From Kiritimatiellia bacterium (GTDB lineage Bacteria > Verrucomicrobiota > Kiritimatiellia > RFP12 > UBA1067): a stretch of 39,173 bases of DNA. Under the pieces are notes generated by a model, which did not search any database, was not told where the DNA came from, and worked only from the letters and a program-made list of their open reading frames with translations. This document shows positions 8,920-39,173 of the stretch, in pieces. Numbering within the stretch: the first letter of the stretch is position 1; the number at the start of each line of letters is the position of its first letter. The position numbers were made by a program, and so were the translations under genes. The DNA lies in NCBI GenBank assembly GCA_016303225.1, contig JAEDMC010000002.1, positions 1 to 39,173 of the forward strand, given 5' to 3'.

Positions 8920-9477
8920 TTACTTTTCTTTTAACCAATTTACAAACTCTGCGACCTTGAACTTCAGTTCTTCGGCAGTTCCGTCGTTCTCGATCACGTA
9001 GTGGGATTTTGCGGCCTTCTCCTCGACCGGCATCTGCGCCTTCAGTCGGGCCTCGGCCTCCTCGCGCGTGTAGCCGCGCGTTTCCATCATGCGCGCAACT
9101 TGCGTCTCCCGCGCAGAACGGACGCAACATATTATATCATAATCTGCGTCCCAGCGGGTCTCGAAGAGGAGCGGGATGATGGCTACACGAAGGACCTTAG
9201 ACTCTAGACGTGAGACTAGCCCGCCTTCCGTCTCTCGTCTAAAGTCCTGAAACGCCTGAATCTTCCTCTTCACTCGCGGGTGGATACGCGCCTCGAGAGC
9301 CTTGCGCTTCGCCTCGTCGGCGAAAACCTCCGCGGCAATGCGCTTGCGCTCGGCCGGATCGGGAATGAGTTCATGCACGACGTCGTCAGCGTCGATCGTC
9401 TCGATGCCGAAGTCGTTGAGGAACTTCGCGACCATCGACTTCCCGCACGCGATTCCGCCTGTCAGCGCGATTCTCAT
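8920..9477 (-). CDS. coaE: Dephospho-CoA kinase (185 aa) with an in-frame family-1 repeat insertion
   Basis: N-terminal P-loop MRIALTGGIACGKS, DADDVVHEL, IHPRV, IIPLLFE. ATG 9477-9475 overlaps the TGA (9479-9477) of the upstream gene, read as TGATG. Confidence 0.9.
   Translation of the reverse strand: MRIALTGGIACGKSMVAKFLNDFGIETIDADDVVHELIPDPAERKRIAAEVFADEAKRKALEARIHPRVKRKIQAFQDFRRETEGGLVSRLESKVLRVAIIPLLFETRWDADYDIICCVRSARETQVARMMETRGYTREEAEARLKAQMPVEEKAAKSHYVIENDGTAEELKFKVAEFVNWLKEK
9189..9248. repeat. Family-1 palindromic element, short copy c, in frame inside coaE (encodes DFRRETEGGLVSRLESKVL)
   Basis: Sequence: gaaggaccttagactctagacgtgagactagcccgccttccgtctctcgtctaaagtcct. It has the same end words, orientation and reading frame (DFRR-K/E-TE) as the uvrA copies. 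It sits between IHPRVKRKIQAFQ and IIPLLFE, where E. coli CoaE as recalled is about 15 aa shorter. Confidence 0.75.
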
Positions 9478-12233
9478 CAGTCTTGCTTCTGAATTGTCTC
9501 GACCTTGTAGAAGAGCTGCGGCATCCCGTCGATGACCGGAGGGTCAACGACAACGATTTCGCCCGTGCCCTTCTCCGTCGCCATCACGCCCCAGCTGTCG
9601 ATCAGAAGATTCGCATTCGTGAGAAGGTTGTAATCAAACTTCGCATCCGACTTGAACGACAGCGAGAACTTGCCGTCTGCAACTGCCGCGGACGAGATCG
9701 TCACCGCATCCGTCGCCTCGGGCACGGGATGCTCAGAGCTGTCCGGTTCCCAAGAAACCGAATCCAGCCACACCTGATCGCCGTTTGACACGTGTGAAAA
9801 CACAATTTTCTGTCCCTCAGCCTTCGGGATGTACACACTCGCAGATTGCCATTCCTCATTTGCAATGCAGACGAGATTCGTCCCACCGGTCCCACCCTCG
9901 AATTCCATGACAAGAATTGTCTGCAAGTTCCCAGCCCAGATATCCTCCTCGTACTGGCCTTTCCACCAGAAGGTCAGCGTTCCCGAGGTTGAGACATCCG
10001 CCGCAATCTGCGCCGCCGTCTTGCCCTGAGACGCGGGATGCGTCACGCAAGCGCCGCGGTCAGCATCGTCCGTCACCTCCCATCTTTCCGCCGTAACGTC
10101 CTCAAAGTACAGGTTGTTGCAGTCCAGCGCCACGGAGATCGGGGACGGGATGAATCTCCAGATTGCATAAAGCGTCACTTCGCCGTCGGCCGCCGCTGTG
10201 AGGTTCGAGACCGACTCGTTGGGCTGGTAGGTTCCGGTCTCCTGCTTTGGATCCATCCCCCAGCCGGTGAACTCATGATGCAGGGGCGCGTCTGGCACGG
10301 GCGTCAACGGCAGTTTCTTTACCTCGTCGTAAGCAAACTCCATGTTCTCCGGCACGGAACCCGTTCCGCCATTCGCGTCGAAGGTGACCGTGTACTGATG
10401 CGCGTTCCAGAGCGCATGGAGCGTACAGGACTCGCCTGCCGCGACAAGATTGGTGACGGCCGCGCCGTTGACGAGGAGGGACTTCTCGTTCGGCGGCAGG
10501 TTCGTCGTCCACATCGTGAAATCGTAGCCGATCCGCGTGAACACATTCGACGGCAGCTGGAAACCGACGTCGCGCTCGACATTCGTCGCCGCCATCTCGC
10601 CCTCGCCGCCATTCGCATCAAAGGCAATGGTATACCGTCCAAGCCAGTCCGCCTTGAAGGTCACGACCCCCTCAGCCTCCGAAGTCAGATTTGACACCGT
10701 CGCCCCGGCCAGGAAGTTCGTCACAACCTTGCCACTGACCAACACCTGCCAGGACCGGAACTCGCAGCCCGTCTTCGTAAACGCGCTCTCGGGAACGACG
10801 TATGCCTCGCCGTATTCGAGCGAAACGGAGTCCATCGCCCCCTTTCCCCCGTTGCCATTAAAGACGACCTCGTACGAAATCGGCGTCCAGATAGCGTAAA
10901 GATGAACTGAGCCTTCCGTCGCCAGGTTGGCGACGGACTCGCCCGGCTGGTACCGAACTTCGGTTGAATCTTCGCTCTCCGCCCAGCCCTTCAGCACGTA
11001 TCCCGTGCGCGAAAGCGGCAGCAGGGCATTCGCCTCGCCATAGAAAAATTTTTGCTCACTCATCGCGCCAGACCCGTCGTTGGCATGCATAATTACACGA
11101 TACGAATTGGCCTGATAGCTCGCATAGACCTTTTCGTCCTTCGCAACCGCCGTGTAGTTACCGGACCATCCCGTAAAGCGATAGCCATCATGCGAAGGAT
11201 TCTCAGGCGGGGTCGCAGATTCACCCTTCAGCACATACTCCACCTTGAGAATGCCGTCCTTGTTTGGCGTCGTTCCGTTGAACATCTCTTCCTCTTTGAA
11301 CGTCACCATGAACTTCTGCGTCCAGCGAGCGTAGAGGTTCACGACTTCATTGTGAACCGCCGTCAAATTCTTGACCGTCTGCTTGTCCGCATAGACAACA
11401 GCCCCTTCCGTCGGGCTCGTCGCCCAGCCGGCGAAGGCATAGCCGTCCTTCGTGTAGGCATTGGCCGTGAGCGCCTTCGCGGAATCATAGGTGAAGGCCT
11501 CGTCCGACATCGACCCGCCCGTCGCACCGTTGCCGTTGAACTTCACGGTATAGGCATTCGCCGCCCACACGGCTGAGAGCTCGGAGTGGAACTTCCATGT
11601 ATTCGAATCCCAGAAACTAGTGCCTGTGACCAAGGCTTTGTCATTGAACGTCGCGCCAAGGTCGTTTGTCCAAATGCTAAACGTATAGCCCGTCTTCACG
11701 AATCCGTTCGCCGTCAGGTTGAACGACGAGTCGATGTTCTTGTCCTCGATCGACGCCGTCGAGCCCGATGCCGACCCGTTCCCCTTGAACGTCACCGTGA
11801 ACGGCAGATAATCGAAATATGCGCCTAACGCACGCCTGACAGTGTTGGGAACAGCCGAAACCTTCAGCGTCGCCTTGCAGGACAGACGATCGCTCGCCAC
11901 AGTCAAAGTCAGATTTGGATCACTGTTTTGCGTCAGCTCAGACATACCGTTACGGACCACGTAGTCCATGCTTTCGTTCCAATACCATCCCATAACCACA
12001 TGACCGGCAGGCGGATGCGCGACGAAATTCGCCTCCTGAACACCATTGCCGCGCGTGACTGCGAACGTTGCCGAAGCGGGGTCGATTTCGCCCTTGGTCA
12101 CCAGTTTCCAGTCGCTGCCAGTCGATACGGTTCCGCGCGTGTTGTAATAACAATACACGGTATCTGTATTTTCCGCCACCAGGATTCCTGCGAAAAAGCC
12201 GCAACAGGCTAAAGTCAGAATGAATTTTCTCAT
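9477..12233 (-). CDS. Secreted surface protein (918 aa): signal peptide, seven Listeria-Bacteroides (InlB B-repeat/Flg_new-type) repeats, a jelly-roll-like domain, and a C-terminal tail ending FYKVETIQKQD
   Basis: ATG 12233 is preceded by GAGGAGG. The signal peptide is MRKFILTLACCGFFAGILVAEN. Repeats are of the type YTVKFNGNGATGGSMSDEAFTYDSAKALTANAYTKDGYAFAGWATSP...LYARW; I counted seven such units, each ending in W or Y. Confidence 0.85.
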   Translation of the reverse strand: MRKFILTLACCGFFAGILVAENTDTVYCYYNTRGTVSTGSDWKLVTKGEIDPASATFAVTRGNGVQEANFVAHPPAGHVVMGWYWNESMDYVVRNGMSELTQNSDPNLTLTVASDRLSCKATLKVSAVPNTVRRALGAYFDYLPFTVTFKGNGSASGSTASIEDKNIDSSFNLTANGFVKTGYTFSIWTNDLGATFNDKALVTGTSFWDSNTWKFHSELSAVWAANAYTVKFNGNGATGGSMSDEAFTYDSAKALTANAYTKDGYAFAGWATSPTEGAVVYADKQTVKNLTAVHNEVVNLYARWTQKFMVTFKEEEMFNGTTPNKDGILKVEYVLKGESATPPENPSHDGYRFTGWSGNYTAVAKDEKVYASYQANSYRVIMHANDGSGAMSEQKFFYGEANALLPLSRTGYVLKGWAESEDSTEVRYQPGESVANLATEGSVHLYAIWTPISYEVVFNGNGGKGAMDSVSLEYGEAYVVPESAFTKTGCEFRSWQVLVSGKVVTNFLAGATVSNLTSEAEGVVTFKADWLGRYTIAFDANGGEGEMAATNVERDVGFQLPSNVFTRIGYDFTMWTTNLPPNEKSLLVNGAAVTNLVAAGESCTLHALWNAHQYTVTFDANGGTGSVPENMEFAYDEVKKLPLTPVPDAPLHHEFTGWGMDPKQETGTYQPNESVSNLTAAADGEVTLYAIWRFIPSPISVALDCNNLYFEDVTAERWEVTDDADRGACVTHPASQGKTAAQIAADVSTSGTLTFWWKGQYEEDIWAGNLQTILVMEFEGGTGGTNLVCIANEEWQSASVYIPKAEGQKIVFSHVSNGDQVWLDSVSWEPDSSEHPVPEATDAVTISSAAVADGKFSLSFKSDAKFDYNLLTNANLLIDSWGVMATEKGTGEIVVVDPPVIDGMPQLFYKVETIQKQD

Positions 12234-12313
12234 TGGAACAATTCCTCCTCAATGACTCATCTACCCTAACAGACTTCGCGCAAAACGATTGCGCCAGAAT
12301 CTCATCTGACCCT

Positions 12314-12393
12314 TTAGCGATTAGCATTTAGCGGTTAGTTATTAGCTTTTCACGCTAACCGCTAACCGCTAAGAGCTAATAGCCAAGAGCTAA
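12314..12393. repeat. Family-3 heptad palindrome: five TTAGCnn heptads, a short centre, then six nnGCTAA heptads in inverted orientation, directly 3' of the secretin stop
   Basis: TTAGC/TTAGT words start at 12314, 12321, 12328, 12335 and 12342. GCTAA/GCCAA words start at 12354, 12361, 12368, 12375, 12382 and 12389, an exact 7-bp period. ttagcggttag (12328-12338) pairs with ctaaccgctaa (12355-12365). Confidence 0.85.
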
Positions 12394-12395
12394 TC

Positions 12396-15300
12396 TCAGT
12401 CGGCCGTCGGTGCAGCCTTGACTTCAGCCGCTGCATCCGTTTCCTCGGCATTGACCGTGAGTTCGCGACCGGACGGCGTGATGAGGCGGCCCGTCACGAA
12501 GATAAGGAGGTTCTTCTTGATCGTCTGCTCCGCATGACTGCGGAAGAGGCGACCGATGAACGGCAGGTCGCCGAGGAACGGCACCTTGTCATCCATCGCC
12601 TTGCGCTGTTCGGTGATGAGACCGCCCATGACGACCGTCGAGCCAGGCGTGATCGAGACCTTCGAGTCGATCGAACGGACCGGGAAGAACGGCTGTTCCA
12701 TCGGCGCGTCATACCAAGTCATGTTCTGCGAGCCAGCCGTGGAGAGGTTGTTGATCGCGGCCATGGAGGTGTCGACGACACGCCCGCCAATCTGCGTGCG
12801 GTCATCATCCGTCAGCGGCACGGCGAGAGCCTGGAGGGAGGCCGTCATCGCCGAGATGATCCCTGCAAAGTCCGGCACAGCCGATGCGCTGCCCGTGTTG
12901 CCCGTGAACGGGATCTTCATGCCGTAGTTGTGCCAGATCGGCTCGTCAACGACCTGCGGCTTGAGTTCAAGGTCGATCGTACCGCCGTTCGCCTCAGAAT
13001 AGGTCGGCGTGACGTCGAGGATGACGCCGACTTCGCGCATCGTGAAGTTCTGCGGCTCGACGACGGCGAGAATCGCGGACTGCGAGCTGCCCGAGTTGCT
13101 GCCGCCAGAAGACGAGCCGGACGACTGGAGCTGCACGTCGTAGTCCTGCGGGTAGATGTACTCGACGACGACCTTGATGACAGCGTTCTCGCCCGACTTC
13201 GTCACGACCTTCGGGGCCGAGAGGAGGTCCGTGTCGCTGCGCTGCGAAAGCATGTGCAGGATCAACGAGAGGTCCGCCTGACCGAGAAACGCGTTCACAC
13301 GCATAAACTGGTCGTTGTTTGAGAGACCCGAACCGGAGACATGGTTGCCGACGTCAGAGAGATAGCGGTTGCCGCGGTTGTATTCAGAATCGGTGCCGCC
13401 GAAGGCATTGATGCCAAGATTGCGGTTGCCGCCCACATCGCGGATCAGACGGCCGTTTCTGGAGCTGTACGGCACATTGCGGGAATACGAATCCGTGAAG
13501 TTTCCACCACTCGTCCAGTTCTTGGTCGACATCGTGTCGGTAATGGAACTCGTGCTCGTGATGTTAGGCAACGGCTTACCGTTGCTCGTAGCCAAGTCCG
13601 TATGCGTCTTATCCGTCACCGTTCCAGAATCGTCAAATCCATTGCCAGAGTTTCTCGTCCAGCTCCTGCCACCGCTCTCCGTGCCCCAGGTCGAGCCCTT
13701 GAGGCCAAGCGCCTTCTTGAGCTTGCCGCCGACATTCAGCGAATAGTCGCTGTTCAGGATCCACTCAAAGCCAAGGGAGTTGAGGTCTTCCTGCATCACT
13801 TCGACGAAACGCGTCTCAATCTCGATGAGCTGCGGCTGACCGCCGAGCTCGTCCAGCACTTTCTCGAACTCAGCGAGGTTCTCGCGCGTGTTGCGGACGT
13901 AGAGCTTGCCGAGCGACTTGATGTGCTTGATCGAGGAACCCTCGGGCCACTTGACGCCCATCTGCTCGAAGAAGACCTTCCAGTCGCGTTCCTGATTTTC
14001 CTCACCGCTGTCGTCAGAGGCCCTCTTCGAGCTGTCGACGAAGCCGCCCATCGTCTTGATTTCCTCGGACGCGGAGGAGACGCGCTCGATGAACGCCTCG
14101 GGGACGTTGTACTTGCGCGCCAGGATTTCGGCGGTGGACATGTCCTTCTGCATGACCATGACGACGGAATCGCGGATGACGAACTTGTAGTCGACCGAAT
14201 CGCAGACGAGCTTCAACGCCTCGTAGATCGTGAGGTCGCTCGCGGAAATCGTCGGAATCGGCGCCAGCCCGTTGCCGGACTCGGTGGCGTCAACCACATC
14301 GTTGCTGGAGAAGTCGTCCGCCTCCTCCGTGGCCGCGGCCTGCGACTTGATGGCGCCCTGCGGCGTCTTGAGGTAGAAGTTGAAGCCGCGCTTCTCAACC
14401 GGAATCTTCGGGTCGTCGTAGTCCTTCGACGCGGTGCGGAAGAAGTCCACCGCCTCGATGATCGTCGCCGGCGGCTTGAACGAGATGGTCGGCAGGCGAA
14501 TCGTCTTCATGCGGCGCTCGATCTCCTGCTCGACCGTGCGCTCGGGATCGTCACCCGTCGACGCCTTGACCGTTTCGGAAGACGAGTCCTTCAGCTGCGC
14601 GGCATTGGGCGCGTAGACCGGACGCCACCGCTCGTCGACGTCGGCGATCATGCCGTCGCGCGCCGCGATGCGCTCGCTCTGGAGAATGACCTTGCGCTTG
14701 CGCTGAATCTGCTCGCGCAGACGAATCGCCTCGCGGTTGTACTTGTCTTTCTTGAGGACGATCTCGCACTCCTCCGCAGCCTTGTTCAGGTCCTTCACCG
14801 CCAGATACTGGCTGCTGCGCCGCAGGTGCCGGCGAATCTGCTCGCGCTCCTTCTTGTATTCCGTATCATTCCGGCGGTGGAGGTTCTCCGCCACATCCGT
14901 CTCCTGCTCGGCGCCGGCAGCTTCCGCATTCCAAAGCTCCAACACGCGACGGGCCTTCGGATGACGCATGTCAATCGCCTGCTGAATGCGCTTGTAGGCC
15001 AGCGCGCGACGACCGAGGTCATACTCCTGCAACGCCGCACGATAGAGACCCTCGGCAATTCCCAGATCGCACTCCTTGCGGAAAGCCTTCGAGGACTGAC
15101 GGTCGTTCAGGAGCTTGAGCGCAAGACCGTAATGACGGACGGCCTCATCATACTCCTCGCCCGCCATGTTCTTGCGCGCCAGATCGATTTCACGCTTGGC
15201 CTGAACATCCAATGCCTTGCGGCGGACCAGCTCCGTGTTGCGGATGTTCTCGATGAGTTCGGCATCGCTCGGCGGAACGGACGGGGCCACGTTGGCCTTC

Positions 15301-20084: not shown

Positions 20085-20124
20085 TCTAACAGCTAACCGC
20101 TAAAAGCCAAAAGCTAAAAGCTTA
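20085..20124. repeat. Family-3 heptad array (six nnGCTAA-type heptads), single arm, overlapping the pta stop codon
   Basis: tctaa, gctaa, gctaa, gccaa, gctaa and gctta start at 20085, 20092, 20099, 20106, 20113 and 20120, an exact 7-bp period. The words, including the gccaa variant, match the right arm of the 12354-12393 array. Confidence 0.8.
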
Positions 20125-21255
20125 CTTCGTCTGCGCCTGCAGCATCGTCACCGCGACGGTCGCCACGATGTCGTCCGCCGAGCAGCCGCGCGAGAGGTCG
20201 TTCATCGCCTTCGCGAGACCCTGCAGGTTCGGACCGATCGCGTCCGCGCCGCCGATGCGCTGCGCGACCTTGTACGCGATGTTGCCGGCCTGGAGGTCGG
20301 GGAAGATGAAGACGTTCGCGTTGCCCTGGATCTCGCCGTTCGGGTTCTTCTGCTTGCCGACGGACGGCACGATCGCCGCGTCGAACTGCATTTCGCCGTC
20401 CATCTTGATGCCCGCCTCGGCAAACTTCGGACGCGCGAGCTCCACCGCCTTCTGCACCTTCTCGACGAGGTCACCCGCAGCGGATCCCTTCGTGGAGAAC
20501 GAGAGGTACGCGACGCGCGGCTCGTTGCCCGTCAAGTCGCGGTAGCTCTGCGCCGTCGCGAGACCGATGTCCACGAGCTGCTCGGCGGTCGGGTTGGGAA
20601 TGACGCCGCAGTCGCCGAACGCGAGAACGCCGTCGCCCGACTCGGTCGGGGTCTTCAAGTCGATGATGAAGCACGAGCTCGCCGTCTTCACGCCCTTCTG
20701 CGTGCCGAGCGTATGGAACGCCGCGCGGAGCATGTCGCCCGTCGAGGCGATCGAGCCCGCGACGAGGCCCTGAACCATGCCCGTCTTCACCATCATGCCG
20801 CCAAAGTAGATCCGCTTGGTCGCCAGCGTCTTCTTCGCCGCCTCAAAGTCGATCAGCTTCTGCTTCTCGGCCGGCTTCTTGGCTTCCTTGGCGTTCCACG
20901 CCTCATGATAGACCTTCGCCAGGTCGTCAAGCAAGGGAGAAGCGGCGTCCCCGCCGCTTGTGCCAGAAGCGGACATTCCATCTTTCTCAAGCGGCGAGGA
21001 CGCCGCTTCCCCTTTCTGGAGCGTCTCCCCCGTCGTGTAGTCGATCGCCTGGATGCCGAAGTCGGCGAGCTTCTTGCCGGCCTTCGCCTCGGCGTCGGCG
21101 ATTTCCGCCGCGGTGCCGAGCACGATCGGCGTCGCGATCTTGCGCTCCACGAGCGCGCACGCGGCGGTGATGACGCGGGCATCCTGTCCCTCGGGGAGGA
21201 CGACCGTTCCGTTGAGCTTGGAAGCCCGTTCGATGATGTTCTTGATTGCGTTCAT
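20122..21255 (-). CDS. pta: Phosphate acetyltransferase (377 aa) with an in-frame double-hairpin repeat insertion
   Basis: ATG at 21255. Motifs VVLPEGQDARV, SFSTKGSA, DGEMQFDAA, ANVFIFPDLQAGNIAYK and GPNLQGLAKAMNDLSRGCSADDIV align with B. subtilis Pta as recalled. Confidence 0.93.
   Translation of the reverse strand: MNAIKNIIERASKLNGTVVLPEGQDARVITAACALVERKIATPIVLGTAAEIADAEAKAGKKLADFGIQAIDYTTGETLQKGEAASSPLEKDGMSASGTSGGDAASPLLDDLAKVYHEAWNAKEAKKPAEKQKLIDFEAAKKTLATKRIYFGGMMVKTGMVQGLVAGSIASTGDMLRAAFHTLGTQKGVKTASSCFIIDLKTPTESGDGVLAFGDCGVIPNPTAEQLVDIGLATAQSYRDLTGNEPRVAYLSFSTKGSAAGDLVEKVQKAVELARPKFAEAGIKMDGEMQFDAAIVPSVGKQKNPNGEIQGNANVFIFPDLQAGNIAYKVAQRIGGADAIGPNLQGLAKAMNDLSRGCSADDIVATVAVTMLQAQTK
20931..21020. 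repeat. Family-2 double-hairpin element, in frame inside pta (encodes about GEAASSPLEKDGMSASGTSGGDAASPLL)
   Basis: Hairpins are aagcggcg-tccc-cgccgctt (20940-20959) and aagcggcg-agga-cgccgctt (20989-21008). The flank ctcaagcggcgaggacgccgcttcccctttctgg closely matches ctaaagcggcgagacgccgcttctcctttgtcgg at 39117-39150. B. subtilis Pta as recalled lacks about 30 aa at this point. Confidence 0.75.
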
Positions 21256-21276
21256 GATAAGCTGTCTTTATTTTTT

Positions 21277-21325
21277 CTAGATGCTCTAGTTGTTCTAGAA
21301 CTTCTAGGGCTTCTAGAACAACTAG
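21277..21325. repeat. CTAG nonamer array (six CTAGnnnnn units) containing a perfect 15-bp inverted repeat, between the ackA stop and the pta start
   Basis: CTAG starts at 21277, 21286, 21295, 21304, 21313 and 21322, an exact 9-bp period. ctagttgttctagaa (21286-21300) pairs perfectly with ttctagaacaactag (21311-21325) across a 10-nt loop. Confidence 0.9.
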
Positions 21326-21331: not shown

Positions 21332-22465
21332 TTACCCCAGCACCCTCACCGTGTCCCTGGCGATCATGAGCTCCTCGTTCGTGGGGATCACCACGACCGG
21401 GATCTTCGAGTCCTTCGTCGAGATGACGATCGTCTCGCCGCGCTTCGCGTTCGCCTTCTTGTCAACCTTGATGCCGAGCGCGCCAAGGCGCTTCAGGATG
21501 CGCTCGCGCACCTCGGTCGAGTTCTCGCCGATGCCGCCGGTGAGGACGATCGCGTCCGCCCCGCCGATGACCGTGTTGTAGCCGCCGAGGTAGAGCGCCA
21601 CGCGATACGCGAGCATCTCAAGCGCCAGTTCCGCATGCCGGTCGCCCTTCGCGGCCTTCGCGCAGATGTCGCGGCAGTCGCTCGAGCCGGTGAGCGCGAG
21701 GAGGCCCGACTTCTTGTTGAGGAGCGTGTCCGCCTCGTGCGGCGTCAGGTGCTCGGCCTCCATGATCGAGAGAACGGCCGCCGGGTCGATGTTGCCGCAG
21801 CGCGTGCCCATCACGAGCCCGGCGAGCGGCGTCAGGCCCATGGTCGTGTCGATGACCTTTCCGCCCTTGATCGCCGCGAGCGAGCTGCCGTTGCCGAGGT
21901 GGCACGTGACGAGGTTCACCTTCGAAAGCGGCTTCTTGAGGAACTTCGCCGCCGCCTGGGTGATGAACTTGTGGGAGGTTCCGTGGAAGCCGTACTTGCG
22001 GATGCCGTACTTCTTGTAGAACTTCGGGTCGATCGCATACATGCCCGCACAGTCCGGCATCGTCGCGATGTGGAAGGCGGTGTCGAAGACGCCGACGTTC
22101 GGGACGCCCTTGAAGATCTTCTCGCACGCCTCGATGCCGCCGAGGTTCGCCGGCATGTGCAGGGGCCCGAACTTGACGAGCTTCTTGGCCTTGGCCATGT
22201 TCGCCTTGTTCATGAGCGCCGAGTCGGTGAATACCTCGCCGCCGTGCAGCACGCGGTGGCCGATCGCGTCAATGCCCTTCGCCGCGTCGCCGAGCTGGGC
22301 GACGACGTTCTTAAGCGCCTCCGCGTGGTCCTTCGGACCGCCGCAGCCGATGCGCTCCACCAGGCCCTTTGCGAGCCGCGTTTCGCTCTTCATGTCGAAG
22401 AGCTGATACTTCAGCGAGGAGCTCCCCGAATTGACCACCAGTACTTTTCTGATCTCTTTCTTCAT
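21332..22465 (-). CDS. ackA: Acetate kinase (377 aa from ATG 22465; the ORF-track start at 22480 is a TTG)
   Basis: Motifs: VLVVNSGSSSLKYQLFDM, HRVLHGG, FDTAFH, YGFHGTSH, HLGNGSSL, TMGLTPLAGLVMGTRCGNIDP, GGIGENS. Confidence 0.95.
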   Translation of the reverse strand: MKKEIRKVLVVNSGSSSLKYQLFDMKSETRLAKGLVERIGCGGPKDHAEALKNVVAQLGDAAKGIDAIGHRVLHGGEVFTDSALMNKANMAKAKKLVKFGPLHMPANLGGIEACEKIFKGVPNVGVFDTAFHIATMPDCAGMYAIDPKFYKKYGIRKYGFHGTSHKFITQAAAKFLKKPLSKVNLVTCHLGNGSSLAAIKGGKVIDTTMGLTPLAGLVMGTRCGNIDPAAVLSIMEAEHLTPHEADTLLNKKSGLLALTGSSDCRDICAKAAKGDRHAELALEMLAYRVALYLGGYNTVIGGADAIVLTGGIGENSTEVRERILKRLGALGIKVDKKANAKRGETIVISTKDSKIPVVVIPTNEELMIARDTVRVLG

Positions 22466-22471
22466 TTCATT

Positions 22472-22520
22472 ATCTTTCAAAATCTTTCAAACCTCAAACG
22501 TCAAACCTCAATTCAAGCCT
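22472..22520. repeat. Short direct-repeat tract (10-bp and 7-bp words) in the 58-bp gap between the giant gene stop and the ackA start
   Basis: atctttcaaa occurs twice (22472-22491), followed by the heptads cctcaaa, cgtcaaa, cctcaat, tcaagcc. Confidence 0.6.
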
Positions 22521-22523
22521 TCT

Positions 22524-25500
22524 TTACTGTACAATCTCCACCTTGTAGAAACCGCTGTTGAAGTCGACGCCGGCCAGCGGCACCTCGATCCGCTCGGTCA
22601 TCGTCGAGCCGTCAATCGTCACGGTCTCGGTCTTGACCGGATCACCCCAGTTCGCGGTGGCTAGGTTCTCCTTGCGGTAGACCTTGATCTCCACTGTCGT
22701 CGAGGTCGGAAGCTCGTAGATCGGCGAGAACAGGTAGCCCGCGATCGAATCGGTCGCCTTCGCGCCGATGGTCAGGATGACCTTGCCGTTCGTGCCGTTG
22801 CCCGCATCGACCACAAGCGAGGTGATCTTGACTGAGTTCGGCTCGATGTTCTTCTCGACCGCGCGGCGGATCGCGTCTATCGTCGACGTGTCGGTATCGC
22901 CGCCGATACCGAGCAACAGCCCCGCCGCCTCGAAGTTCTCGAACAACGTCAGCGTGGCGCCGGAGAGGAAGCGGGAGATGCCGGCCTTACCTTCAAGGAT
23001 GCCGTCATAAACGGTCTTCTTGAGGATAATCCGTCCCTCTGGATCGACCGAGGCGTCAGAGCGTCCGATCTCGTACTTGTCCGGATACTGGTACTCGTAT
23101 GCATCAGGCACCCAGTCACTGTCGGTGTCGGCATCCTCGATGTAAAGGCCGACGATCGGCGCAAGCTGGTTCAGCTTGACGGTGACCGGTTCTTTCACGT
23201 CTCCCCACGACTCCCACGGATCCTTCTTGAAGTTTCCGTTCGAGTCGATGTAAGCGCGGATGTAGTAGGTGCCGCTCTTGAGCCCGATCAGGCGTCCGTT
23301 CGCCCGGATGTCGGTGGCGTCCGTCAGCGCAAGCTTGTTCGTGACGAAGCCCTGCGCCGCAGGATCGCCGCTGAAATCGGGGCTCGTGAACGCCTGAAGG
23401 CGAACCTTGCCCTTGATCTCCGCAAGATTCTCGCACTGGCCGAGCACCGCCTCGGGCCCCGTGTACTTGACGGCCACGTCGATCGAGGAGTAGCCGTTGT
23501 CGCCGGTCTCCTGCTGCGTATCGACGGACGTGGAGAACGAACTGGGATCAGACCACACGTCGCCCGTAATCTTGGCGTTCGGCTTGAACTTAGCGTTGTA
23601 CATCGCCACGCGCCACTGGTAGTTGCCGGCCTTGGCGAAGACCTGGCCAAGCGACGTCTGGTCGCCGGCATAGATCGGCGCGGTCCAGACGAAGTTGCCG
23701 CTCCTGTCCTGCGCCGGCGCACGCATGACGTCAGATGTCCAGACAAGCTTGTTCAAGCTCGTATTGACCACCTGGATCCGGAACGCCGTATAGGACGAAC
23801 CGAAGCGCTTCGCATACGCTTCCTCGTCCGGCATCGACCAGACAAAGGTCGGACGCGATCCGTGGAGGACGGCTCCTTCGCGAAGTCCGATGGCCTTCGG
23901 CTTGGACCAGTTGCGCTCGAAGCGACGGGTGACGAGCAGCGGCTTGGCCGCATCGGAATCGTCGGACGCGCCGGAGGAAGAGCCCGACGACTCGCCCTCG
24001 GAGGCCAGCAGCGCCGTCACTCGATCGGAAGCGTTCGTCTGGTTCTTGCGCGTGAAGCCGACAGGTCCGTCGCCGAGCACGACGAGGTAGGACATGTTGG
24101 TGACCTCGTAGTGGTAGCCGGCGAGCGGCGAGGCGACCTCGCTCTTTAGGTACTGCCAGTCGATGTCGAACTCGTCGCTCGAAAGGAAGTCGGCTTCGCT
24201 GAAGCTGTCGTCGACGCCCCTCGTGAAGTCGCGGTCAAGCACGACGCGATTGGTCACGCCGCAGCTGTAGGTGAAGAACCCGTCCACCGCATAGCGGACG
24301 ACTCGGACGCGCACGGATTCCTTCTCCGGCAGCGTCAGCTCGAGGTTGAGCCCGCTGAACGTGCTCGAATCGGACGCCAGATTGCGGCTGTCATATTCGC
24401 CATACGTCTCTTTGTCAAAGTTGCTGGCCCGGTCGCTGATGCCGGTCCAGATGTCGACACGCGGCGTGATGGCGCTCATCGTCGTGAGGTCGATCCTGAG
24501 CTTCGCGCCATCCCAGCCGACGTCCACGTCGCGCGCGACACCGAACGGCTCGCCGGGCGTATACTCGCCGTTGCCATCGGAGTCGACGAACGCCACGAAG
24601 GTGTTGAGACCCTCGCGGACGTACCCGCCGCTGAGGCTCGACACGCTGCTGCCCGCATCGGAGAGGTAAAGCGTCTGGTTGAACGAGCCGAGCGTCGTGC
24701 AGGAGCTCCAGGTCACAATCACATAGCTCTGCTCAAGATTGAGGAGATCGTAGGTCGAATCGTCCTTCTCCTCCTGCTTCGCCTCGCCACCCTCGCCTTC
24801 GGCCACCGACTCGGTGTCGCCGAGCATCATGCCGTTCATGCGCTCCGCGTCGAAGTTGACCGTGACCTTTCCGGTCTTGTAGTCGACGGTGCCCACGGCC
24901 TGCTCGCCGGCGATGACGCCGCCGATCGTGTAGAGCACGCCCTCGCGGTCCTGCGCCTTGTAGTACCACTTCGCGTAATCGGGATCGCCGATCGACAGGT
25001 TCTCGATCTCGCCGTACTGGTCGAGCTTGGCGACGCAGTAGCTGAGGTCCTTGAAGGCAATCCGCACCGAACCGTGCTGGATCGCGCCCGGCCCGAGGTT
25101 GAACGTCCGCATGCCGTTCGGCTTGAGACCGACGTACTTCTGCGACGTATTCACTCCGACGGACGCCTGTTCTTCGGAGTTCCCGAGGTGCCAAACCGCA
25201 TCGGCCTTACCGGTCATGTTCGGATCGATCTTCTGGCTCCACGCCTTGATGACAACCGGTGCCGCGGCATCAGCCACGCCGGAACAGGTCAGGAAGGTCT
25301 CGATGCACGGCTCCGGATAGGCCGCGAGCACGTAACCGTCGATGCCGACGTCGGCCTCCGTCTCGGGATCCGTCCCCGCTTTAGCCTCTGCCCAGTTGGA
25401 CCAGCCGTCGCCGTCGTCATCGCGCGACGGATCGTAGGCGTAGCGATTGGCGGAGCCCGGATACGCGCTCTCCCAGATGTCGTTCACCTGGTCGTGGTCG

Positions 25501-28500
25501 GTGAAGATCTCGCCGACGTAGAGGTCGCCCATCTTGCGGAAGTAGTCGATGCAGTACCCATCCGTCTTCGGGTTCCTGGGATCGAGCTTCGCGTATCCGA
25601 ACACTTCGCTGATCAGGTACTCCGCGTAATTCGAGAGACCATCGCCGTCGGCGTCCTTGCCCGCGTCATCGCCCTTGAGGCAATACTGGTAGGCGTAGTA
25701 GTCAATGACGCCGTCGTTGTCGGTGTCGAGATTCCACGGATCGGTCGGCAGGTGTCCGCCGTCGTACTCGTCGAGCAGCGTGAGGCCGTCACCGTCCGGC
25801 GAAGCGAGGCGCGCGTCGTTGAAGTTCCACGGGCTGATCTTCGCCTCGGCGAGCGCGCAGCTGCCGACACCGTTGGGGCCGAACATCACGTAGAGCTCCC
25901 AGCCGTCGGCGATGCCGTCCTTGTCGTTGTCGGGATCGAGCGGCTTGAGGGTCAGGTCCTTCCACTGCTGGCCCGGCGTCAGATTGAGGTTCATCGTCTC
26001 CTCGCTCGCGAGGCCGGCCGCCTCGAGGTAGCGCACGAGCAGGTACTTGTCGAGCGCCGTGAACGCCTTCGAGTGCTCGCCCGCACCGGTCGCAACGTCC
26101 GGCTCGAAGCCGAACGCGTCGTAGACCTGGCCGTGCACCAAGACGACCGTGCCCTCGCCGACCTGCGCGACGCGGTAGAGCTTGCCCGCTTCCGCCACGA
26201 GCGTGACGTTCGTGCCGAGGCCGACGCGGGCCTGCAGCTCACCGCCGACGCTGACCTCGTAGGTGTAGGTCTCGAAGAGCGGCAGACCGACCGCCGTGTC
26301 GCCGCGGACCGGCTTCTTCGCCACGTCCTCGCCGAGCACATAGACCGTGACGTCCGCCGGATCGTCCGTGTTCTGCACGGTGACGAGCGTCGCCTCGACC
26401 TCCGCATAGGCCATCCAGTCGCCGTCCGTGACCTCGTCGGCATCATAGAAGCGCGGATCCAGCCCCGCAAACTCCATCTCCCAGCCGTCGGGCATGCCGT
26501 CGCCGTCGGTGTCCCACAGCGTCGAATCGGTGCCGAAGCCGTTCTCCTCGTCGTCGGTGAGGCCGTCCTTGTCGCCGTCCAGCGCGCCGGAGCTGTCGCC
26601 GCCGCCGGTGAACTTCTCGGACTCGAGACAGTCGGGGATCTCGTTGCCGTTCAGGTCGCAGTCCTCGATGTAGATCGTGCAGGTCGGCACCTGGACGAGC
26701 GAGTCGACAATCCCGACGCCGACTGGGTTGTAGATCGCCGCCACGCTCTTGCCGACCGAATTGACATAGCCCCAGCTCTCCCAGTTGTCGCGCTTGCCGT
26801 TGTTGTTCTGGTCGATGTACGCACGGAGGTACACCGTGCCCGGCTCAATGCCCTTGAGGAACGCGTTCGTCGTCGTGATGTCGGTGATGGAGTCAATCGC
26901 CGCGACGTCCGCGATGCGCGTACGCGCCACCGGCTCGCCCGTGAAGTCGGCGTTCTCGAACGCCTCCACGACGATCATGCCCGCGAGGACGTTCGTCGGC
27001 CCGTAGTAGCGGACCGCCGCCGCCACGCTGCCGTAGCCCGTCGCGAACTGCGCGTAGCGGTTCTTGTTGCCGACGTCCATCTGGAACTTGCCGAACTCGC
27101 TCCAGCACGCCGGGTCGGACGTGTCGTTGAACTTCGCGTTCATCAGCGCCACGCGCCAGACGTAGTTCGAGCCGTCGTGGAAGACCGTCGAACCGTTCGT
27201 CGTCACCGCGCAGTCGGCGTAGAGGGCCGGCGTCACCGTGTAGGCGTACTCCCCGACGCCAAGGCCCTGGCGCGCCGGCAGAATCCGCACGCCCGAGTCC
27301 CAGACCTTGTCGACGCCGTTCGCCGCGAAGACCTGGATCTCATAGGCCGTCATCGTGTCGTCCGAGCTCGAGAACGCAAAGGTCGGACGCGCCGCGTAGA
27401 CCGGCTTGTCCTGCGCCGGCGCCTTCACGACCGGCTTCGAGCGCTGCGTATTGAACTGCCGCGAGAAGCAGCCGACGACGCTGTTCGAGGTGCTGCCGTC
27501 GGCACCCTTCGTCACGCGCTCGACCGTATAGCCGACGGTGCGGATGTCCTTGAGCTCAAGACCGAGTTTCTCCGTCGCGTCCGTGACCAGCCACTTCCAG
27601 TCGAGGTCGCAGACGTTGCCGCTCAGAATGTCCGCCTCGGTGAGATACGCGCGATCGTCCAGCACCACCGTGCGCGTCGCGAGCTGCCGCTGCGGCACCG
27701 TGACGTCGTTGATTTCGGACTCGCCGTTGATCGTCACGCGGCGGATCACGAACTGTGCCTCGCCGCTGCCGCCGCCAAGCGACTGGCGCGTCAGCGCGAC
27801 GCCCTCGTCCTTCAGCTCGATCGCCAGCTCCGGCACCTTATGCCAGCCGATCTCCACGTTCTTGAGGACGCCGTAGGGCTCGCCGTCGCTCCACTGTCCG
27901 TTGCCGTCGAGGTCGAAGAACGCCTCGACCGTGTTGAGGCCTTCCTTCACGCGGCCCTTGCCGACCACCTGACCCTGGCCGAATTCCTGCGTGTCGGAAA
28001 GCCAGACGGCCTGCGGCCAGTTCTCGCCGATGTGCGAAGCGTAGGTGACGCGCAGGATGCTGCTCCCGAGCTTGTCGCCATCTTCGTCGCTGACCGCGAG
28101 CTTGCCCGTGTCAAGGTCCCACTCGCCGGTCCTGAGGTCAATCGTGCCGATCTCCGTCGCCGTCGCGCTGTGGATGATCTTCGCCGTCGTGCCCGCCGCG
28201 TCGCTCACAGAAGTCGCGAACGCCGTCCACTCGAGCTCGCCGCCCGTGAGCTCGATGTGCGGATACCGGAGGAGATACCACTTGTACTCCTCGAACGTGC
28301 CGCTGGAGGCGACACCCTGCGGGACCTCCTCGTACCACTCCCAGCTCCAGGTGTAGGTGCGGTCGCTGGAGGTGAGCGCCTTCTCAAAGACGACGGAGCT
28401 CGGCTGCACCGAACCGGGGCTCATGAAACCGCGCATGACGGTCTCCTCGCGGAAGCCGCCGACGAACTTCGTCGCGCCACCGGCCTCGTGCGAAACGATG

Positions 28501-31500
28501 AACGTCGCATCGACGCGCGGCGAGATGCCCGTCCAGGTGCGGACGACGAGCGGAACGCCCTTGACGTCCTGCGCACCGTAGTAGTAGGGCCGGATGCCGA
28601 TCGCCGGCTCCGGATAGCTGACGCCATGCATGTCGTTGTCCATGTAACGGTCGATGAAGTCGGCGACGTAGTTGCCGCCCCAGAGCGCCGCGCGGCACTC
28701 CGCGAAGTTCGACCAGCCGTCCTCGTCCGCGTCAAGCTGCGGATCGTAGACGCCGGTGTTGACGAACGTGTTCTTGTACTGCTTCTCCCACCAGTTTTCC
28801 ATGAAGTCGTGGTCGGTCGCGATCTCGCCGAGGTACTCGTGCGAGTTGAAGTGGCGATGGATCTTGCCCTTCGCGTCGACCGTCACGTTGCCCGGTATCG
28901 CGTCCGCCTCCGCCGGACCCGGCAAGAAGTAGTCGACCACCAGCTGGTCCTTGCCCGAACGCGCCTGCGTCGGGTTGAGGAGCGGGAAGCCGTTGTCGAT
29001 GCCGTACGGGGCCGAACCGAACGAAAGCAGGTATTCGGCGTAGTTGGAGAGGCCGTCGTTGTCGGAATCGTCCTCGGCGCCATACTGCGCGACGCCCCAG
29101 AGGTTCTCCCACCAGTCGGGGATGTTGTCGCCGTCGACGTCAGCGGTCGAGGCGTAGGCCGAATCGAGCGTGCCGTCAGGCTGCAGGCCGCGGGCGAGGT
29201 CGATGAGGTAGGCCTGGTAGGCCGCCATCTCGACGCCGAGGTAGTTGATCGCCGTATCCCAGTTCAGCGGAATCTCGGGATCGAGGTCCGGGCAGTAGTT
29301 CTCGCGGGCATACTCCTCCCACCAGTCGGGAAGTCCGTTGCCGGCCGCGTCGACCTGCGTCTGCTCCCAGGCGTCGGCCGGCGAGCCGTCGTCCCACATC
29401 TGCGGACAGGTCTTCGCGTACGCGCCGCCGAGCGGCAACAGGTCGGTCGTGCCGATGAAGCGGCTGCGGATGTCGTAGCGGTACATGTTGAGGATCGGCT
29501 CGTAGGTGTCGCCGCCCAGGTTGAAGAGCCGGTTCAGGGTGAAGAGCTTGACGTAGCGGTCAACCCAGTAGTTGGAGCACGGATACGGCATCGCATCGTT
29601 CGGGAACACGAACTTGTTGACGCCGTTCGTCATCGCCGGGGTGTAGTACCCGCCGAGCTGTTCGGAGAAGAAGAAGTCGTCAATGCAGCTGCCGTCCATC
29701 ACCGGCAGGTGCGAGACCGTGTTCTCGATCCACGGCACGACGCGCGCGTCGCTGTAGACCGTGCTCCTCAGGCCGCAGCTCTCCCACCAGCCGACGCCGA
29801 TGCCGCCCTTGAACTTGTAGGAGCCGGCCTGGCCGTCCTTGAGACCGCGCGGATCGGTGAGGCCGTGCGTGTTCATGTCGGGGTTGCGCGACGAGAGGTA
29901 GTCGTTCTCGGCCTGCTGCGCGACCGCCTTATCGAAACCGCCCGGCAGCTTCGCGACGTCGGCCGCGTTCACCGCGCCCGGCATCGTCACGAAGTTGTAG
30001 TGGTGCAGGAGCTCGGCCGGCAGCATCGCCTGGCCCGAGGCGTCGTTGCGCGTCGCACCCTGCAGCCAGGACTGGTAGACCGTCGTGCGGTTCGCCTCGA
30101 CGTCCGCAAAACTCATGCGCGAGCGGTAGTTCGACAGAATCTCCGAACCGGAGCGCGCGCCGTCCCAGATGCGCACTTCGTCGACATAGCCGTTGAAGTA
30201 CTCGCCCATGTTGGCGAACGACTCGACGTGCTCGCCGTTGCGGACGAAGTACGGATAGAGCGGCACCATGCGGTCCACGGTGTTCTTCGTGTGCTTCGGA
30301 CGCGCGCCGACGTAAAGCGCCACCGCCCGACCGCCGTACTGGTATGCCGGGAAGCGCGAGGGATCCGTCGGATCCTGTCTGATCTGCGTGACGCCATTCG
30401 CCGGAATGAGAGAGGTCGGCTCCTGCTTGCAGAGATCGCCGTTCACGTAGAGCTTCAGCGCCTTGCCGTCGTAGGTGAGGGCGACGTGCGACCACTTGGC
30501 GAGCGGCAGCACGAGACCGTCGACGCGCATGCAGCTCAACGGCTGGTTGAGACCCGACTGGATCGAGTCGTTGTTGTCGAACATGCCGTAGACGCGGCCG
30601 TCCGCCGCGAGGCCGATGCGGAAGTTCGCGCGAATGGCGCCGCCCGCCTTCGTGATCGCATCGCCACCGTAGTAGGAGGAGCGCTCGATGATCGTCTGGT
30701 CGGCACCCGTCTTCTCCGGCCTGACCCACGCCTCGACCGTGAACTGCTTCAGCAGGTCGAGGGCGTCGACGCCGCGGTACTGCAGGTCACGCGACATCAC
30801 ATACGCGTCCTTGCCCGGGAAATACATCGCCTGACGGCGGTCCGGATCGCTGAAGTTCAGCGGCGAGGACATGGTCTTCACCGTCTTGACGATCTCGCGG
30901 CCGTCGGGCTGCCAGTCGTTGTCGGTATCGTAGCCTTCATTCTCCTCGAAGGAGAAGAGGTAGGCGGAATTCGCCTTCTCCATGGCGACGAGGTAGTAGT
31001 TCTCGCCCGCGATGCCGACCGCGTTCGGGTTCAGCCAGAACGGCAAGACGGCGACCGTCGAATCGACAGCATAGTACTGCGACACGTAGCTGTTCGCCTT
31101 CGACGTGTCAGTCATCCACAGCGGCGTCGGGTCGGTGTGGCTCGCCTGCGGACTCGCCTGATTCGCGACAATGCGCTCGTCGTCATTGCGGAGGCCGTCG
31201 CCGTCGGGATCGGCCGCCCAGCAGCCGATCGCCCACGGATAGAGCACCGGGTCGTATGCCATCGGCGCGGTGATCGGCATCTTGCGGTTGCTGGTCGGGA
31301 TCTGGGCGTGGAACGCAAGATAACGGTTGTAGTCCGGATGAGTCCACTCGTTCCAGTAGGCGTTGTAGAAGACCGGCATACCATAGGCCTTTGCAATCAC
31401 GTCCTTGCTGCCGGCCGCTTCGGGATCGGCGCCCAGGAGCGGGTTGAGCCCGTGGAAGAGTTCGTAGAAGTCGTCCATGCCGTCGCCGTCGGAGTCGGCC

Positions 31501-34500
31501 TTTTGCGGCGACGTCGAGACATACTTGCCGTACACCGCCGGACGCATGTAAGTCTTCCAGTCGATATACATCGCGTTGTAGTGGCAGACGATGCGGTCGA
31601 AGCCGTAGGTCACCGGCGCCATGTAGCCGAGCGCCTCCCAGCCCTCGTCCGTCCACGGATGGCTGTACCGGAAGTTGATCGCCTCGCCCGGATGCGCGGC
31701 GAGCCACTCGGCGTCGTTCATGTGCTTCAGGACGAAGTCGGCCTCCGACCCGAGCAGGAGGTTCGTCGTCACCGTCACCGTGAAGTTCGTGGAGATGACA
31801 TGCGTGTACGGGTTCTCCGTCACCACCATCGCGTTCGTCTTCGTGTGGATGCTGAGGACGTCCGTGTCATACCACGTGGTCGCCGCCTTGAGGCAGAATT
31901 CGTGCGCGCTCTGCATCATCGGCGTGAAGTCGAGGAAGTTCTGCTGATGGTACGGCCCCTCCTCGAGGACACGGCCCATGAGCGGGGTCGAGATGTCGTC
32001 GTAGCGGAAGTGGCGGACGGCCTGGACGAGGTATTCCTGCCAGTTCTGGAGTCCGTCATGGTCCCAGTCGACGTCGCGGTTCGTGCCGGTGAGCGGGTCG
32101 TAGGAATGGCTCAACCTGGCCGGCATGTCCAGCGGATCGGTGTAGGCGTCGCCGCCCCACGTCGCGTCCATGCCGTCGATGATGATGACGCCCGTAAGCG
32201 ACTTGCCGAGGATGCCCGCGGCGAGACGGCGCGCGTCGAAGAACGTCGGGTCTTCGCGGACGCTCGCCCACATTCCGGCGCCGACGCCCGGCGGCATCTC
32301 GTCCGGCTTCACGTAGTTGTTCGCCGCCATGTCGTACGGCAGGCCCGCGAACTGCATTTCCCACGCGTCGGGCAGGCCGTCGAGGTCGGTGTCGGCCGTG
32401 AGCGGGTTCATGCCGCCGCCGCGGATGCAGGTCGAGTTGTCGTCGGTCGGCTGGCCGTAGATGAAGCTCAGGCCCTCGAGAGCCTCGCTGCCCTCGTCGT
32501 CCGCATAGCCGATGACGACCCAGCTGCTGCCTTCCTGTCCGTCATAGACGCCGTCGGCGTCGGTGTCGCCGTTGTCCGGATCGGTCGGGAAGAACTTGTT
32601 GTACCAGCCCTTCGCCTTGCCCGGATGGTTCTTGTAGATCGACTCGCAGCTCTTGTAGGCGTTGCACGAGTCGGTGCCCGCGAACTCCGCCGCATAGGTG
32701 AGGACATCGTCGTCAATGTCGGTCGGCAACATGAGCCTGGACGGTCCCTCGGAGATCGGATCTTCCTCTTGGCCGAAAGCCGTGCACGGGTTGCGGTAGG
32801 TGTAGAGCTCCCAGCCGTCCGGCACGCCGTCGCCGTCCGTGTCGGCGCCGTGCACCTGGATGACGCCCTTGTCCGGCTTGCCGGCTTCCTTGAAGGCCTG
32901 CGCGATCAGCTCGGCGAGCTTGCTGTTCGCCGACTCGACGTCGTTCGTGCCGGCCGTCCCGACGTCGTTCGTGCCCGACGCCTCCGCGTACACCGACGGC
33001 ACCGTGGTCTTCGAGGCGATGTAGCCCCAGGTGTCGCCGGACTCCTTGATCTGCTCGCCCGGATAGACGATGCTGAAGAGCGAGCGGTAGCGGCCGAGCA
33101 GGTACTCGTCATACGCCGCGTACGGGATCGTGTTGATCGACTTGCCCGTCGCGCCCTCGCCCTCCTCCCAGCGCGAGCCGACGAAGCGATTCTGGTTCCT
33201 GAACCAGCCCGTGCGCGGATCGAACCCGAAGATCGAACGGACCTGGTCGTGGAGCATGATAAACGGAATGGGATAATCGCCCTTCATCGGACCGCTCTGG
33301 TAGATCTTCTCGCCCGCCTTGAAGGTGCGGGTCACCCACCAGGTCTCCAGCGACCACTTCGGGTTCTGCGTGAAATTGTAGTACCAGATCACCGGATTCT
33401 TGACCGGATCCTGCGGCATGTCTTCCTCGCGACCATAGGCCGTCATCGCGCCGTCCTGCCAGAACGGTCGCACCACGAGCGCGCGAATCGTCTTGGTCTG
33501 CGTCATCACGTAGACACCCGGTTCGCCAGGGGCCGGACGGAAGTCCCAGTCCTCAATGAGCTGCCCGCTGACGTCGAAGTACCAGTTGGTCTGGATCTCG
33601 AAGACGCCCCTCTCGATCTCGACCTCCTCGCCAATGGCTTCAGTGCCGAAAAGGCCCAGCGTCGTGAACGCCGCCATGAAGTCGCCGTCGGCGTTCGCCG
33701 CCTTGTCGCTCGTGCTCTGCGGGTCGAGGCCCATCATGACCTCCCACGCGTCGCACATGTGGTCGCCATCCGTGTCCCAATGGCAGGGATTCGTGCCGAT
33801 CAGGTATTCCTCGTAGTCGGAAAGACCGTCGTTGTCAAAGTCGCCCGGCGCCTTCTCGCCGCGCGGCTCGCACGGATTGAAGTGAGCCTCGACCTCGGTG
33901 TTGGTGATGGCCGTGCCGAAGATGAAGCTCTTCGCGTTAAAGCGCTCGAAGACATAGGACTGGCCGTTGACGGGCTTGGCCGTACCCGCCGGCACGGTCA
34001 CGTGGGCGAGGTACCAGAAGTAGTATTCCCAGCCGTCGGAGAAGTGGTCGCCGTCGGTATCGTCCGTCGTCGGATCCATCCGGACGCTCTCGCCGGTCGG
34101 TTCCGGGCTCCAGCGCGACAGGTCAGGCGTCCAGAACGGATCGTCGTCCGCCGGCGGATTCGCCGGATCATAGTTCGCGTCGTTCGCGATCAGCCACGCC
34201 TTCCACGCGGCGAGCTCGTCCTTGCTGAAGTCGGCGTCGGACTTGAGGTCGTCCTTCGCGTTGAGGCCCGGCTCGAAGCCGCGCAGCTCGCGGACCGTCG
34301 TGAACGCATGGCCGATCGGCGCATAGCTCTTCTGAGACGCCTGGACGAGCGCCATCTCGCCCTCGACCCTCCAGACGCCCGGCAGGTAGTCCTCGTCGGG
34401 GTTGGTCTTGGCGAGGTCCTTGAGGTCCGCCACGTTGCCGACGGCATCACCGTAGATGAGCTCCAGGAGGTTCACGCCCGCGCCCCTCCAGACCTTCATC

Positions 34501-39119: not shown

Positions 39120-39173
39120 AAGCGGCGAGACGCCGCTTCTCCTTTGTCGGTCCCAGCGCAAAGCGGCGAGACG
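39120..39173. repeat. Family-2 hairpin element, intergenic copy, cut by the window edge
   Basis: aagcggcg-aga-cgccgctt lies at 39120-39138. A second aagcggcgagacg begins at 39161 and is truncated at 39173. It matches the element inside pta. Confidence 0.7.

Follow-up and report, generated by a model that had tools for sequence, protein, structure and literature searches.

A probable REP doublet carried in frame by the phosphate acetyltransferase gene of a gut Kiritimatiellae lineage

The pta locus and its in-frame insert

The stretch of DNA analysed here (the window, 39,173 nucleotides from a Kiritimatiellia genome assembly) carries a phosphate acetyltransferase gene, pta, downstream of ackA (21332-22480). 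Acetate kinase adjoins pta also in a related locus, L001. We identified pta by the Pfam family PF01515, found on all homologues, and by matches to Pta proteins in the PDB (to E = 4e-67). The homologues with names are Kiritimatiellae MAG proteins, and the sequencing runs carrying the sequence are mostly pig-gut metagenomes.

20122..21255, minus strand: pta, phosphate acetyltransferase, open reading frame of 377 aa
20929..21027 (approximate), minus strand: in-frame insert, codons E77-L109, net +96 nt and about +32 aa relative to 345-aa orthologues; predicted peptides GEAASSPLEK and DGMSASGTSGGDAASPLLDDLAK

Orthologues at 72-86% identity are 345 aa long and have no insert, and the same short form was found in all of about 80 related Kiritimatiellae pta loci from JGI metagenomes. 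In the alignment, the window Pta reads DYTTG-ETLQKGEAASSPLEKDGMSASGTSGGDAASPLL-DDLAKVYHEAW, and the 345-aa homologues at 79-86% identity read DYTxGDA-ELExAYLEAW. A related strain's contig (run X9) has 21 nt in place of 20912-21028, and the solved Pta structures, including B. subtilis 1TD9/1XCO, have a linker of ~20 residues vs. 62 residues in the window Pta. The insert is therefore real, lineage-specific, in frame, and of net 96 nt, its bounds being set by protein alignment plus comparison of orthologue DNA. The original prediction, that a hairpin-bearing segment at 20931-21020 is missing from other Pta proteins, was right about the absence and the location, but the net insert is larger than that range. 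An assembly artefact was rejected, as the same Pta was present on ~100 or more contigs from 20 or more runs, plus RNA libraries. In ~1 Mb of sequence flanking the insert-free pta relatives, we found no AAGCGG..CCGCTT hairpins.

Hairpins in the window

The insert contains two hairpins, translated as ...GETLQKGEAASSPLEKDGMSASGTSGGDAASPLLDD..., and further copies lie at the window edge.

20933..20967, plus strand: putative REP unit 1, head GGAG (20936-20939) and hairpin 20940-20959; its exact sequence is a low-copy variant
20968..20980, no strand: spacer between the arms; half-site GAAGCGGAC (20967-20975) overlaps its start by one base
20981..21016, minus strand: putative REP unit 2, head-first on the minus strand, hairpin 20989-21008 and degenerate head CCCC (21009-21012)
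20988-21015: core of unit 2, 28 nt, the high-copy family sequence
39120..39142, minus strand: intergenic putative REP unit, hairpin 39120-39138 and head CTCC (39139-42; GGAG on the minus strand)
39161..39173, minus strand: start of a further unit, a direct repeat of the 39120 unit with a 41-nt period

The pta hairpins, AAGCGGCG-TCCC-CGCCGCTT and AAGCGGCG-AGGA-CGCCGCTT, both have a perfect 8-bp stem and a 4-nt loop and lie 49 nt apart, start to start, exactly as originally predicted. A third hairpin with the exact stem, AAGCGGCG-AGA-CGCCGCTT, lies outside pta (39120-39138), and a fourth, AAGCGGCGAGACG, begins at 39161 and is interrupted by the window end. The element occupies two loci within 39 kb. 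The sister copy that had been proposed for the window edge is thus an intergenic hairpin of the same stem, but its loop has 3 nt, and the two edge copies are apparently direct repeats sharing the AGA loop, whereas the pta pair is inverted.

The pattern AAGCGGCG-N3/4-CGCCGCTT occurs three times in the real window and had no match in any of 100 dinucleotide-preserving shuffles. Perfect 8-bp hairpins of any stem numbered 8 against 6.9 expected. Thus, the signal is one stem common to three hairpins and not the frequency of hairpins. In pta, the two units form inverted arms of 35 nt (20933-20967 and 20981-21015) with 83% complementarity, and the doublet as a whole is an 83-nt near-palindrome. Read head-first, each unit in the window is G-G-A/G-G followed by AAGCGGCG-loop-CGCCGCTT, with GGAG on unit 1 and on the intergenic unit and GGGG on unit 2; the canonical head is GTAG. 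The half-site GAAGCGGAC is the third half-site of the pta element and also flanks a transposase (RayT) gene in another genome, L074.

The intergenic unit lies ~100 nt upstream of a promoter-like site (39016-38988, minus strand) of a giant minus-strand gene. Its hairpin resembles a weak terminator (tail CTCCTTTGTC) on the plus strand only, in a loose scan, and no plus-strand gene precedes it; the pta hairpins were not flagged in the intrinsic-terminator scan. A CRISPR array at the window edge was considered and rejected: the repeat has 19 nt and a 41-nt period, and cas genes are absent. At 21016, the outer edge of unit 2, contigs from four metatranscriptomes carry a C>T variant.

The window also holds a palindromic repeat of another family (family 1, GGACTTTAGAC...GTCTCAAGTCC), with two in-frame copies within a uvrA-like gene (5306-5404 and 5846-5944, minus strand) and one in coaE (8923-9543, minus strand) at about 9190-9250.

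Copy number and in-frame copies in other genes

In three pig-gut metagenomes, the core of unit 2 reached summed depths of 1262, 522, and 229 vs. 8.25, 9.82, and 5.59 for its flanks, which is about 40-150x single-copy depth and, coming from metagenomes and not from a closed genome, may pool copies from several related organisms. This core is found on many 31-32-nt high-depth Logan contigs, and also on contigs with other flanks. The depth of unit 1 was not raised in metagenome contigs, so the exact doublet of the window is not a high-copy sequence. The view that a dispersed repeat has landed in frame in pta is borne out by these data: the copies go well beyond chance, and the segment was found in no unrelated lineage.

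In-frame copies are not limited to pta. At the ends of metagenome contigs, translated by hand, a single unit in the same frame interrupts another gene (...KNVIGFGTIA-KGEAASSPLEKE-NEINPQDVR), at a depth similar to that of the organism. The sister lineage L001 has in its pta a homologous doublet whose stem differs (GAAGCGGAAA..TTTCCGCTTC), and the adjacent kpsF-like gene carries a near-identical copy of this doublet (~90 nt) in frame. The corresponding peptide, SGEAESFPLQNK...SGKDSASPL, occurs in CoaE, FolP/DHPS, UDG-like, glycosyltransferase, and DsbD-like proteins and in several unknown proteins, as well as in spurious ORFs over intergenic arrays; the search used a concatenated-frame query that missed known carriers, and its counts are lower bounds. 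One of the matched proteins (P0136) carries the window-type peptide KGEAASSPLVMDNPSLFRSGEDAASPLL.

The doublet is symmetric, and the peptide is encoded in one frame from either orientation. Elements of the L001 type are stop-free in only that frame. Since their other frames contain stops, the frame bias points to selection against truncation.

One protein of 173 aa (P0121, on a 1333-nt ENA contig) has a Pta N-terminus fused to a KpsF C-terminus exactly at the shared doublet. This chimera reflects either a deletion by recombination between the copies in the two neighbouring genes or a collapse of the assembly at the repeat.

A hairpin family linked to RayT genes

REP-class elements are non-autonomous and are spread by a single-copy RayT/RAYT tyrosine (HUH, Y1) transposase, which recognises the hairpin together with its head on single-stranded DNA. 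We asked for the same stem in other bacteria by a pattern scan of species-representative genomes. The matches listed are mostly single hits in unrelated genomes and the genome of the window is not among them, so the scan informs the family picture and not the copy number.

Among the matches listed, the stem occurs with GTAG, GTGG, or GGAG heads and as inverted doublets on many contigs of Verrucomicrobia, Planctomycetes, Kiritimatiellae, and Lentisphaerae, and the family form is G[T/G]AG plus an AAGCGG-stem hairpin. On these PVC contigs, the stem is flanked by GTAG...CTAC, by GTGG, or by ACTGGGGG; an example of a doublet, in L110, is aaaGTAG-AAGCGGCGTCCTCGCCGCTT-12 nt-AAGCGGCGGGGACGCCGCTT-CTACttt. 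Judged by sequence, GTAG...CTAC flanks together with inverted doublets are characteristic of GTAG-type REPs and REP dimers.

We aligned 16 units, most of which had been selected as hairpins in the first place: the outer five pairs are invariant, 99.2% of the stem cells pair, and the three inner pairs vary only by two-sided changes (13 cells), which 0 of 500 shuffles reached.

The same units lie beside RayT genes. In L074, an ORF with a Y1_Tnp domain (PF01797, 34.5 bits) has 5137 homologues, for many of which the source gives the name RayT or REP-associated tyrosine transposase; GGGAG-AAGCGGCGTCTCGCCGCTT-CCC lies 28 nt upstream, and inverted AAGCGG units lie at either side. In L206/L207, a RayT homologue with 51% identity lies between dimers of the form TGGAG-AAGCGACT..AGTCGCTT-TA-AAGCGGCA..TGCCGCTT-CTCCA. 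Within the 39-kb window we found no RayT gene, and the linkage is seen in these other genomes only.

The L074 unit (4898-6799 of contig CAZPYE010000043.1) is a complete REP-RayT-REP arrangement within pdxA. The PdxA N-part, REPs, RayT, REP, and PdxA C-part form a single stop-free frame of at least 634 codons, and Pfam shows PdxA split in two by Y1_Tnp. It is either a tolerated fusion or a pseudogene, and a RayT gene may itself reside in frame inside a gene. The Enterobacteriaceae label of this MAG is doubtful.

Direct tandem arrays of the same hairpin were seen in two Verrucomicrobia UBA1731 contigs (L091 and L085) and in a Treponema MAG (L019). The L091 array has a 41-nt period and the tail CTCCTGA, resembling the window edge; L085 has the same unit with longer spacing, and L019 has a 67-nt period with AT-rich spacers.

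Origin of the pta insert

We consider that the double hairpin in pta is probably a REP doublet (REPIN-like) made of two inverted palindromic units of ~35 nt, spread by a RayT and persisting near-neutrally. A copy would have inserted in the pta of an ancestor of a small Kiritimatiellae sub-clade, in the linker after the DYTTG strand, where the landing frame would give a small, polar, and stop-free peptide (GEAxSxPL...SGxDxASPL). Selection would have tolerated it as a neutral or nearly neutral passenger, transcribed with pta and, presumably, translated. We infer that a RayT also mobilised the element in this genome. Against a REP assignment, the head is not GTAG (GGAG/GGGG), no RayT was found in the window, and only unit 2 is high-copy in its exact form.

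The 83-nt near-palindrome is also of the size of a MITE or an RPE, its outer ends are inverted repeats, and whole doublets recur in the L001 lineage. The element could accordingly be a MITE, the deletion derivative of a DDE-type IS moved by cut-and-paste via terminal inverted repeats, and it shares with the in-frame bacterial MITEs (Correia, Nezha, and Chunjie; reviewed in PMC10969869) the small, non-autonomous palindrome that is readable through ORFs. However, MITEs have their own terminal inverted repeats matching a DDE-type IS, and target-site duplications, neither of which was seen here; at the pta junctions, the comparison of filled and empty sites gave no direct duplication. Besides, single and direct tandem units exist (39120/39161 in the window, L201, L085, and L091), which is REP-like and not MITE-like, and the transposase genes flanked by the same units are of the Y1 (RayT) type. 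We regard a MITE as quite unlikely.

Turnover at the pta site

The Pta proteins bearing an insert form one clade, nested among insert-free forms, and the site differs between the lineages of this clade. The window lineage has the doublet. The L001 lineage has its doublet plus 0, 1, or 2 further copies of unit 2 in tandem (51 nt each), giving Pta proteins of 382, 399, and 416 aa. L201 has a single unit with yet another stem (AAGCGGTC..GACCGCTT), L204 a decayed unit and a new hairpin, L202 an unrelated long palindrome, and L203 an AT-rich tandem repeat (AATAATCGAAT). The L001 series (L001:10280-10381; P0053, P0059, and P0054), with 1, 2, and 3 copies of SSSSRSGKDSASPLVGA, is a case of copy-number variation within a loop of the enzyme.

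On the simplest reading, the element inserted once, in an ancestor, and has since turned over in place. The resident copy would have been remodelled in each lineage: cut to one unit, lengthened by tandem duplications of 51 nt, made uniform with the REP variant of its genome, decayed, or replaced. The copies of each genome resemble its own family variant, and in L001 the copy in pta is nearly identical to that in kpsF. This turnover could be driven by gene conversion between copies, by re-insertion at the resident REP, or by templated repair of the palindrome.

Such an unstable site might suggest that the palindrome arose on the spot, by slippage during replication or by a template switch within a hypervariable Pta linker, and that the resemblance to other loci is convergent. 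The 51-nt tandem duplications, the AT-rich microsatellite-like insert of L203, and the unrelated palindromes of L202 and L204 would fit this origin. It leaves unexplained the exact 28-36-nt identity with many other loci, the near-identical 90-nt copies across different genes of L001 and in other proteins, and the same head-plus-stem unit beside RayT genes. For these reasons, we hold a purely local origin to be very improbable.

A parallel exists in coaE: the CoaE of a relative (P0124) has a REP doublet exactly at the site where the window CoaE carries the family-1 element. The two families had been described as independent, which stands at the sequence level, but both can share the coaE site across lineages. 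Tentatively, and with more doubt than confidence, we suggest that resident in-frame REPs are landing pads at which the RayT system or gene conversion repeatedly rewrites the same codons (pta, coaE). If so, sister lineages should differ in repeat family, copy number, and stem variant at each such site, and REP populations would be a steady source of loop hypervariability in essential enzymes.

Expression and structure of the insert

In four pig-gut metatranscriptomes, contigs span the element with no joint, among them one of 492 nt (20743-21234) and one of 251 nt (20813-21063). The transcript therefore retains the element, although metatranscriptome libraries can contain DNA. The insert is probably translated, given the intact frame in more than 50 near-identical Pta variants.

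At the protein level, an AlphaFold2 model built on a shallow alignment was poor (mean pLDDT 48) and gave residues 81-106, at pLDDT below 50, as a coil that joins a strand to a helix. This coil prediction and the alignment gaps against the variable linker of PDB Pta proteins hint weakly at a surface loop.

The hairpins could instead have been selected as a cis-regulatory structure in the pta mRNA (a ribosome-pausing site, an RNase III/E site, or a stabiliser) that tunes ackA-pta, with the dispersed copies as similar regulators elsewhere. The folding is indeed very stable: as RNA, the doublet forms a single long stem (-71.8 kcal/mol, z = -7.2), and as DNA it has z = -5.9. Stem complementarity is preserved through two-arm changes between lineages, the element is present in RNA-derived contigs, and action of REPs at the RNA level is known in some settings (PMC3733652). 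However, the element is absent from most orthologues, sister lineages have one, two, three, or four units or unrelated sequence at the site, and the unit is found across many unrelated genes as well as in non-coding DNA. Rfam gave no match in the window, and recognition of the DNA hairpin by a transposase explains the palindromy equally well. A regulatory RNA is thus an unlikely explanation of the pta insert.

Comparison with known repeat systems

GTAG-type REPs and their RAYT transposases were reportedly treated in Nunvar 2010. Our elements resemble GTAG REPs and REPINs in having a palindrome of 20-40 nt with a head-like tetranucleotide, inverted doublets that fold to a long hairpin, high copy number, an occurrence as singletons, dimers, and arrays, and Y1 transposase genes flanked by units. 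They differ in the GGAG/GGGG head and in that the RayT linkage here comes from other genomes.

The biology of REPINs and RAYTs has been described (Bertels & Rainey 2011, PMC3116915), and GTAG- and CGTC-tagged REPs, including REPs and dimers that lie in frame within genes and encode 20-30 aa, have been catalogued (Di Nocera 2013, PMC3733652). That catalogue accepts the head variants GYAG/GTRG/GTGG, and GGAG is not listed in it. For REPs, a stem of 6-9 bp in a unit of 20-40 nt is required, and the units here have perfect 8-bp stems, 3-4-nt loops, and 35 nt. REPs are also expected to be extragenic: the 39120 copy is intergenic and the pta copy is intragenic and in frame, which does not exclude it from the REPs because intragenic exceptions are documented (PMC3733652). 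As for REPINs, the inverted doublet with its long hairpin is present and recurs whole in L001; in the window lineage, only unit 2 is high-copy.

The closest precedent is Opitutus terrae, another member of the PVC group, where about 70 ORFs contain in-frame GTAG REPs or dimers, including both uvrA genes and DHPS (PMC3733652). Here too, the host belongs to the PVC group and in-frame segments of ~20-30 aa lie in housekeeping and repair genes, with uvrA and DHPS in both. Unlike in O. terrae, the host is a Kiritimatiellae bacterium of the pig gut, the gene is pta, and turnover at an orthologous site is documented. We did not find pta or coaE (dephospho-CoA kinase) as host genes in the supplementary files of PMC3733652. 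Rickettsia conorii is also rich in intragenic REPs, and its RPE-4 and RPE-6 are CGTC REPs (PMC3733652).

The elements here and the Rickettsia palindromic elements (RPEs) are both dispersed palindromic repeats of ~100 nt, in frame in many unrelated and often essential genes, with a single tolerated reading frame for hydrophilic loop peptides, which for the elements here are predicted ones. There is no sequence relationship between them; the host here is free-living in the gut and that of RPEs is an obligate intracellular bacterium, and the unit here is a probable REP doublet whose head is of RayT type, while no transposase is known for RPE-1. RPEs, with a different phylum and consensus, would be a functional analogue only. 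RPE-1 to RPE-8 were reportedly described in Ogata et al. 2000.

In-frame REPs are thus already described in related bacteria and in Rickettsia, and the less ordinary part of our results is the turnover at one site. If the pta insert is a REP doublet, the in-frame 'decoration' of essential genes by REPs extends to Kiritimatiellae, an uncultured gut lineage. A PVC-wide hairpin family (G[T/G]AG plus AAGCGG stem) is tied to RayT genes. The series at the orthologous site (no insert, one unit, doublet, 51-nt expansions, and other repeats) is a natural experiment on REP turnover and informs how much insertion a central metabolic enzyme tolerates. For annotation, such repeats add length to proteins, give rise to spurious ORFs where they form intergenic arrays, and can cause assemblies to collapse, of which the Pta::KpsF chimera may be an example.

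Other repeats in the window

The AT-rich spacers at 6531-6593, 12313-12405, 20086-20122, and 21269-21324 are full of short tandem and palindromic oligomers, among them GGTTTGGGA (~7 times), runs similar to CTAACCGCTAA, and, in the spacer from ackA to pta, palindromes of TTCTAGAAC. The filler at the L203 pta site resembles these spacer repeats.

Finally, the giant gene next to the intergenic unit (22524-38603, minus strand) is an ORF of 5359 aa with dozens of diverged motif repeats of the D-x-D-x-DG type (TSP3-like, calcium-binding), and its L001 orthologue has faint TSP3_bac and Laminin_G_3 matches.
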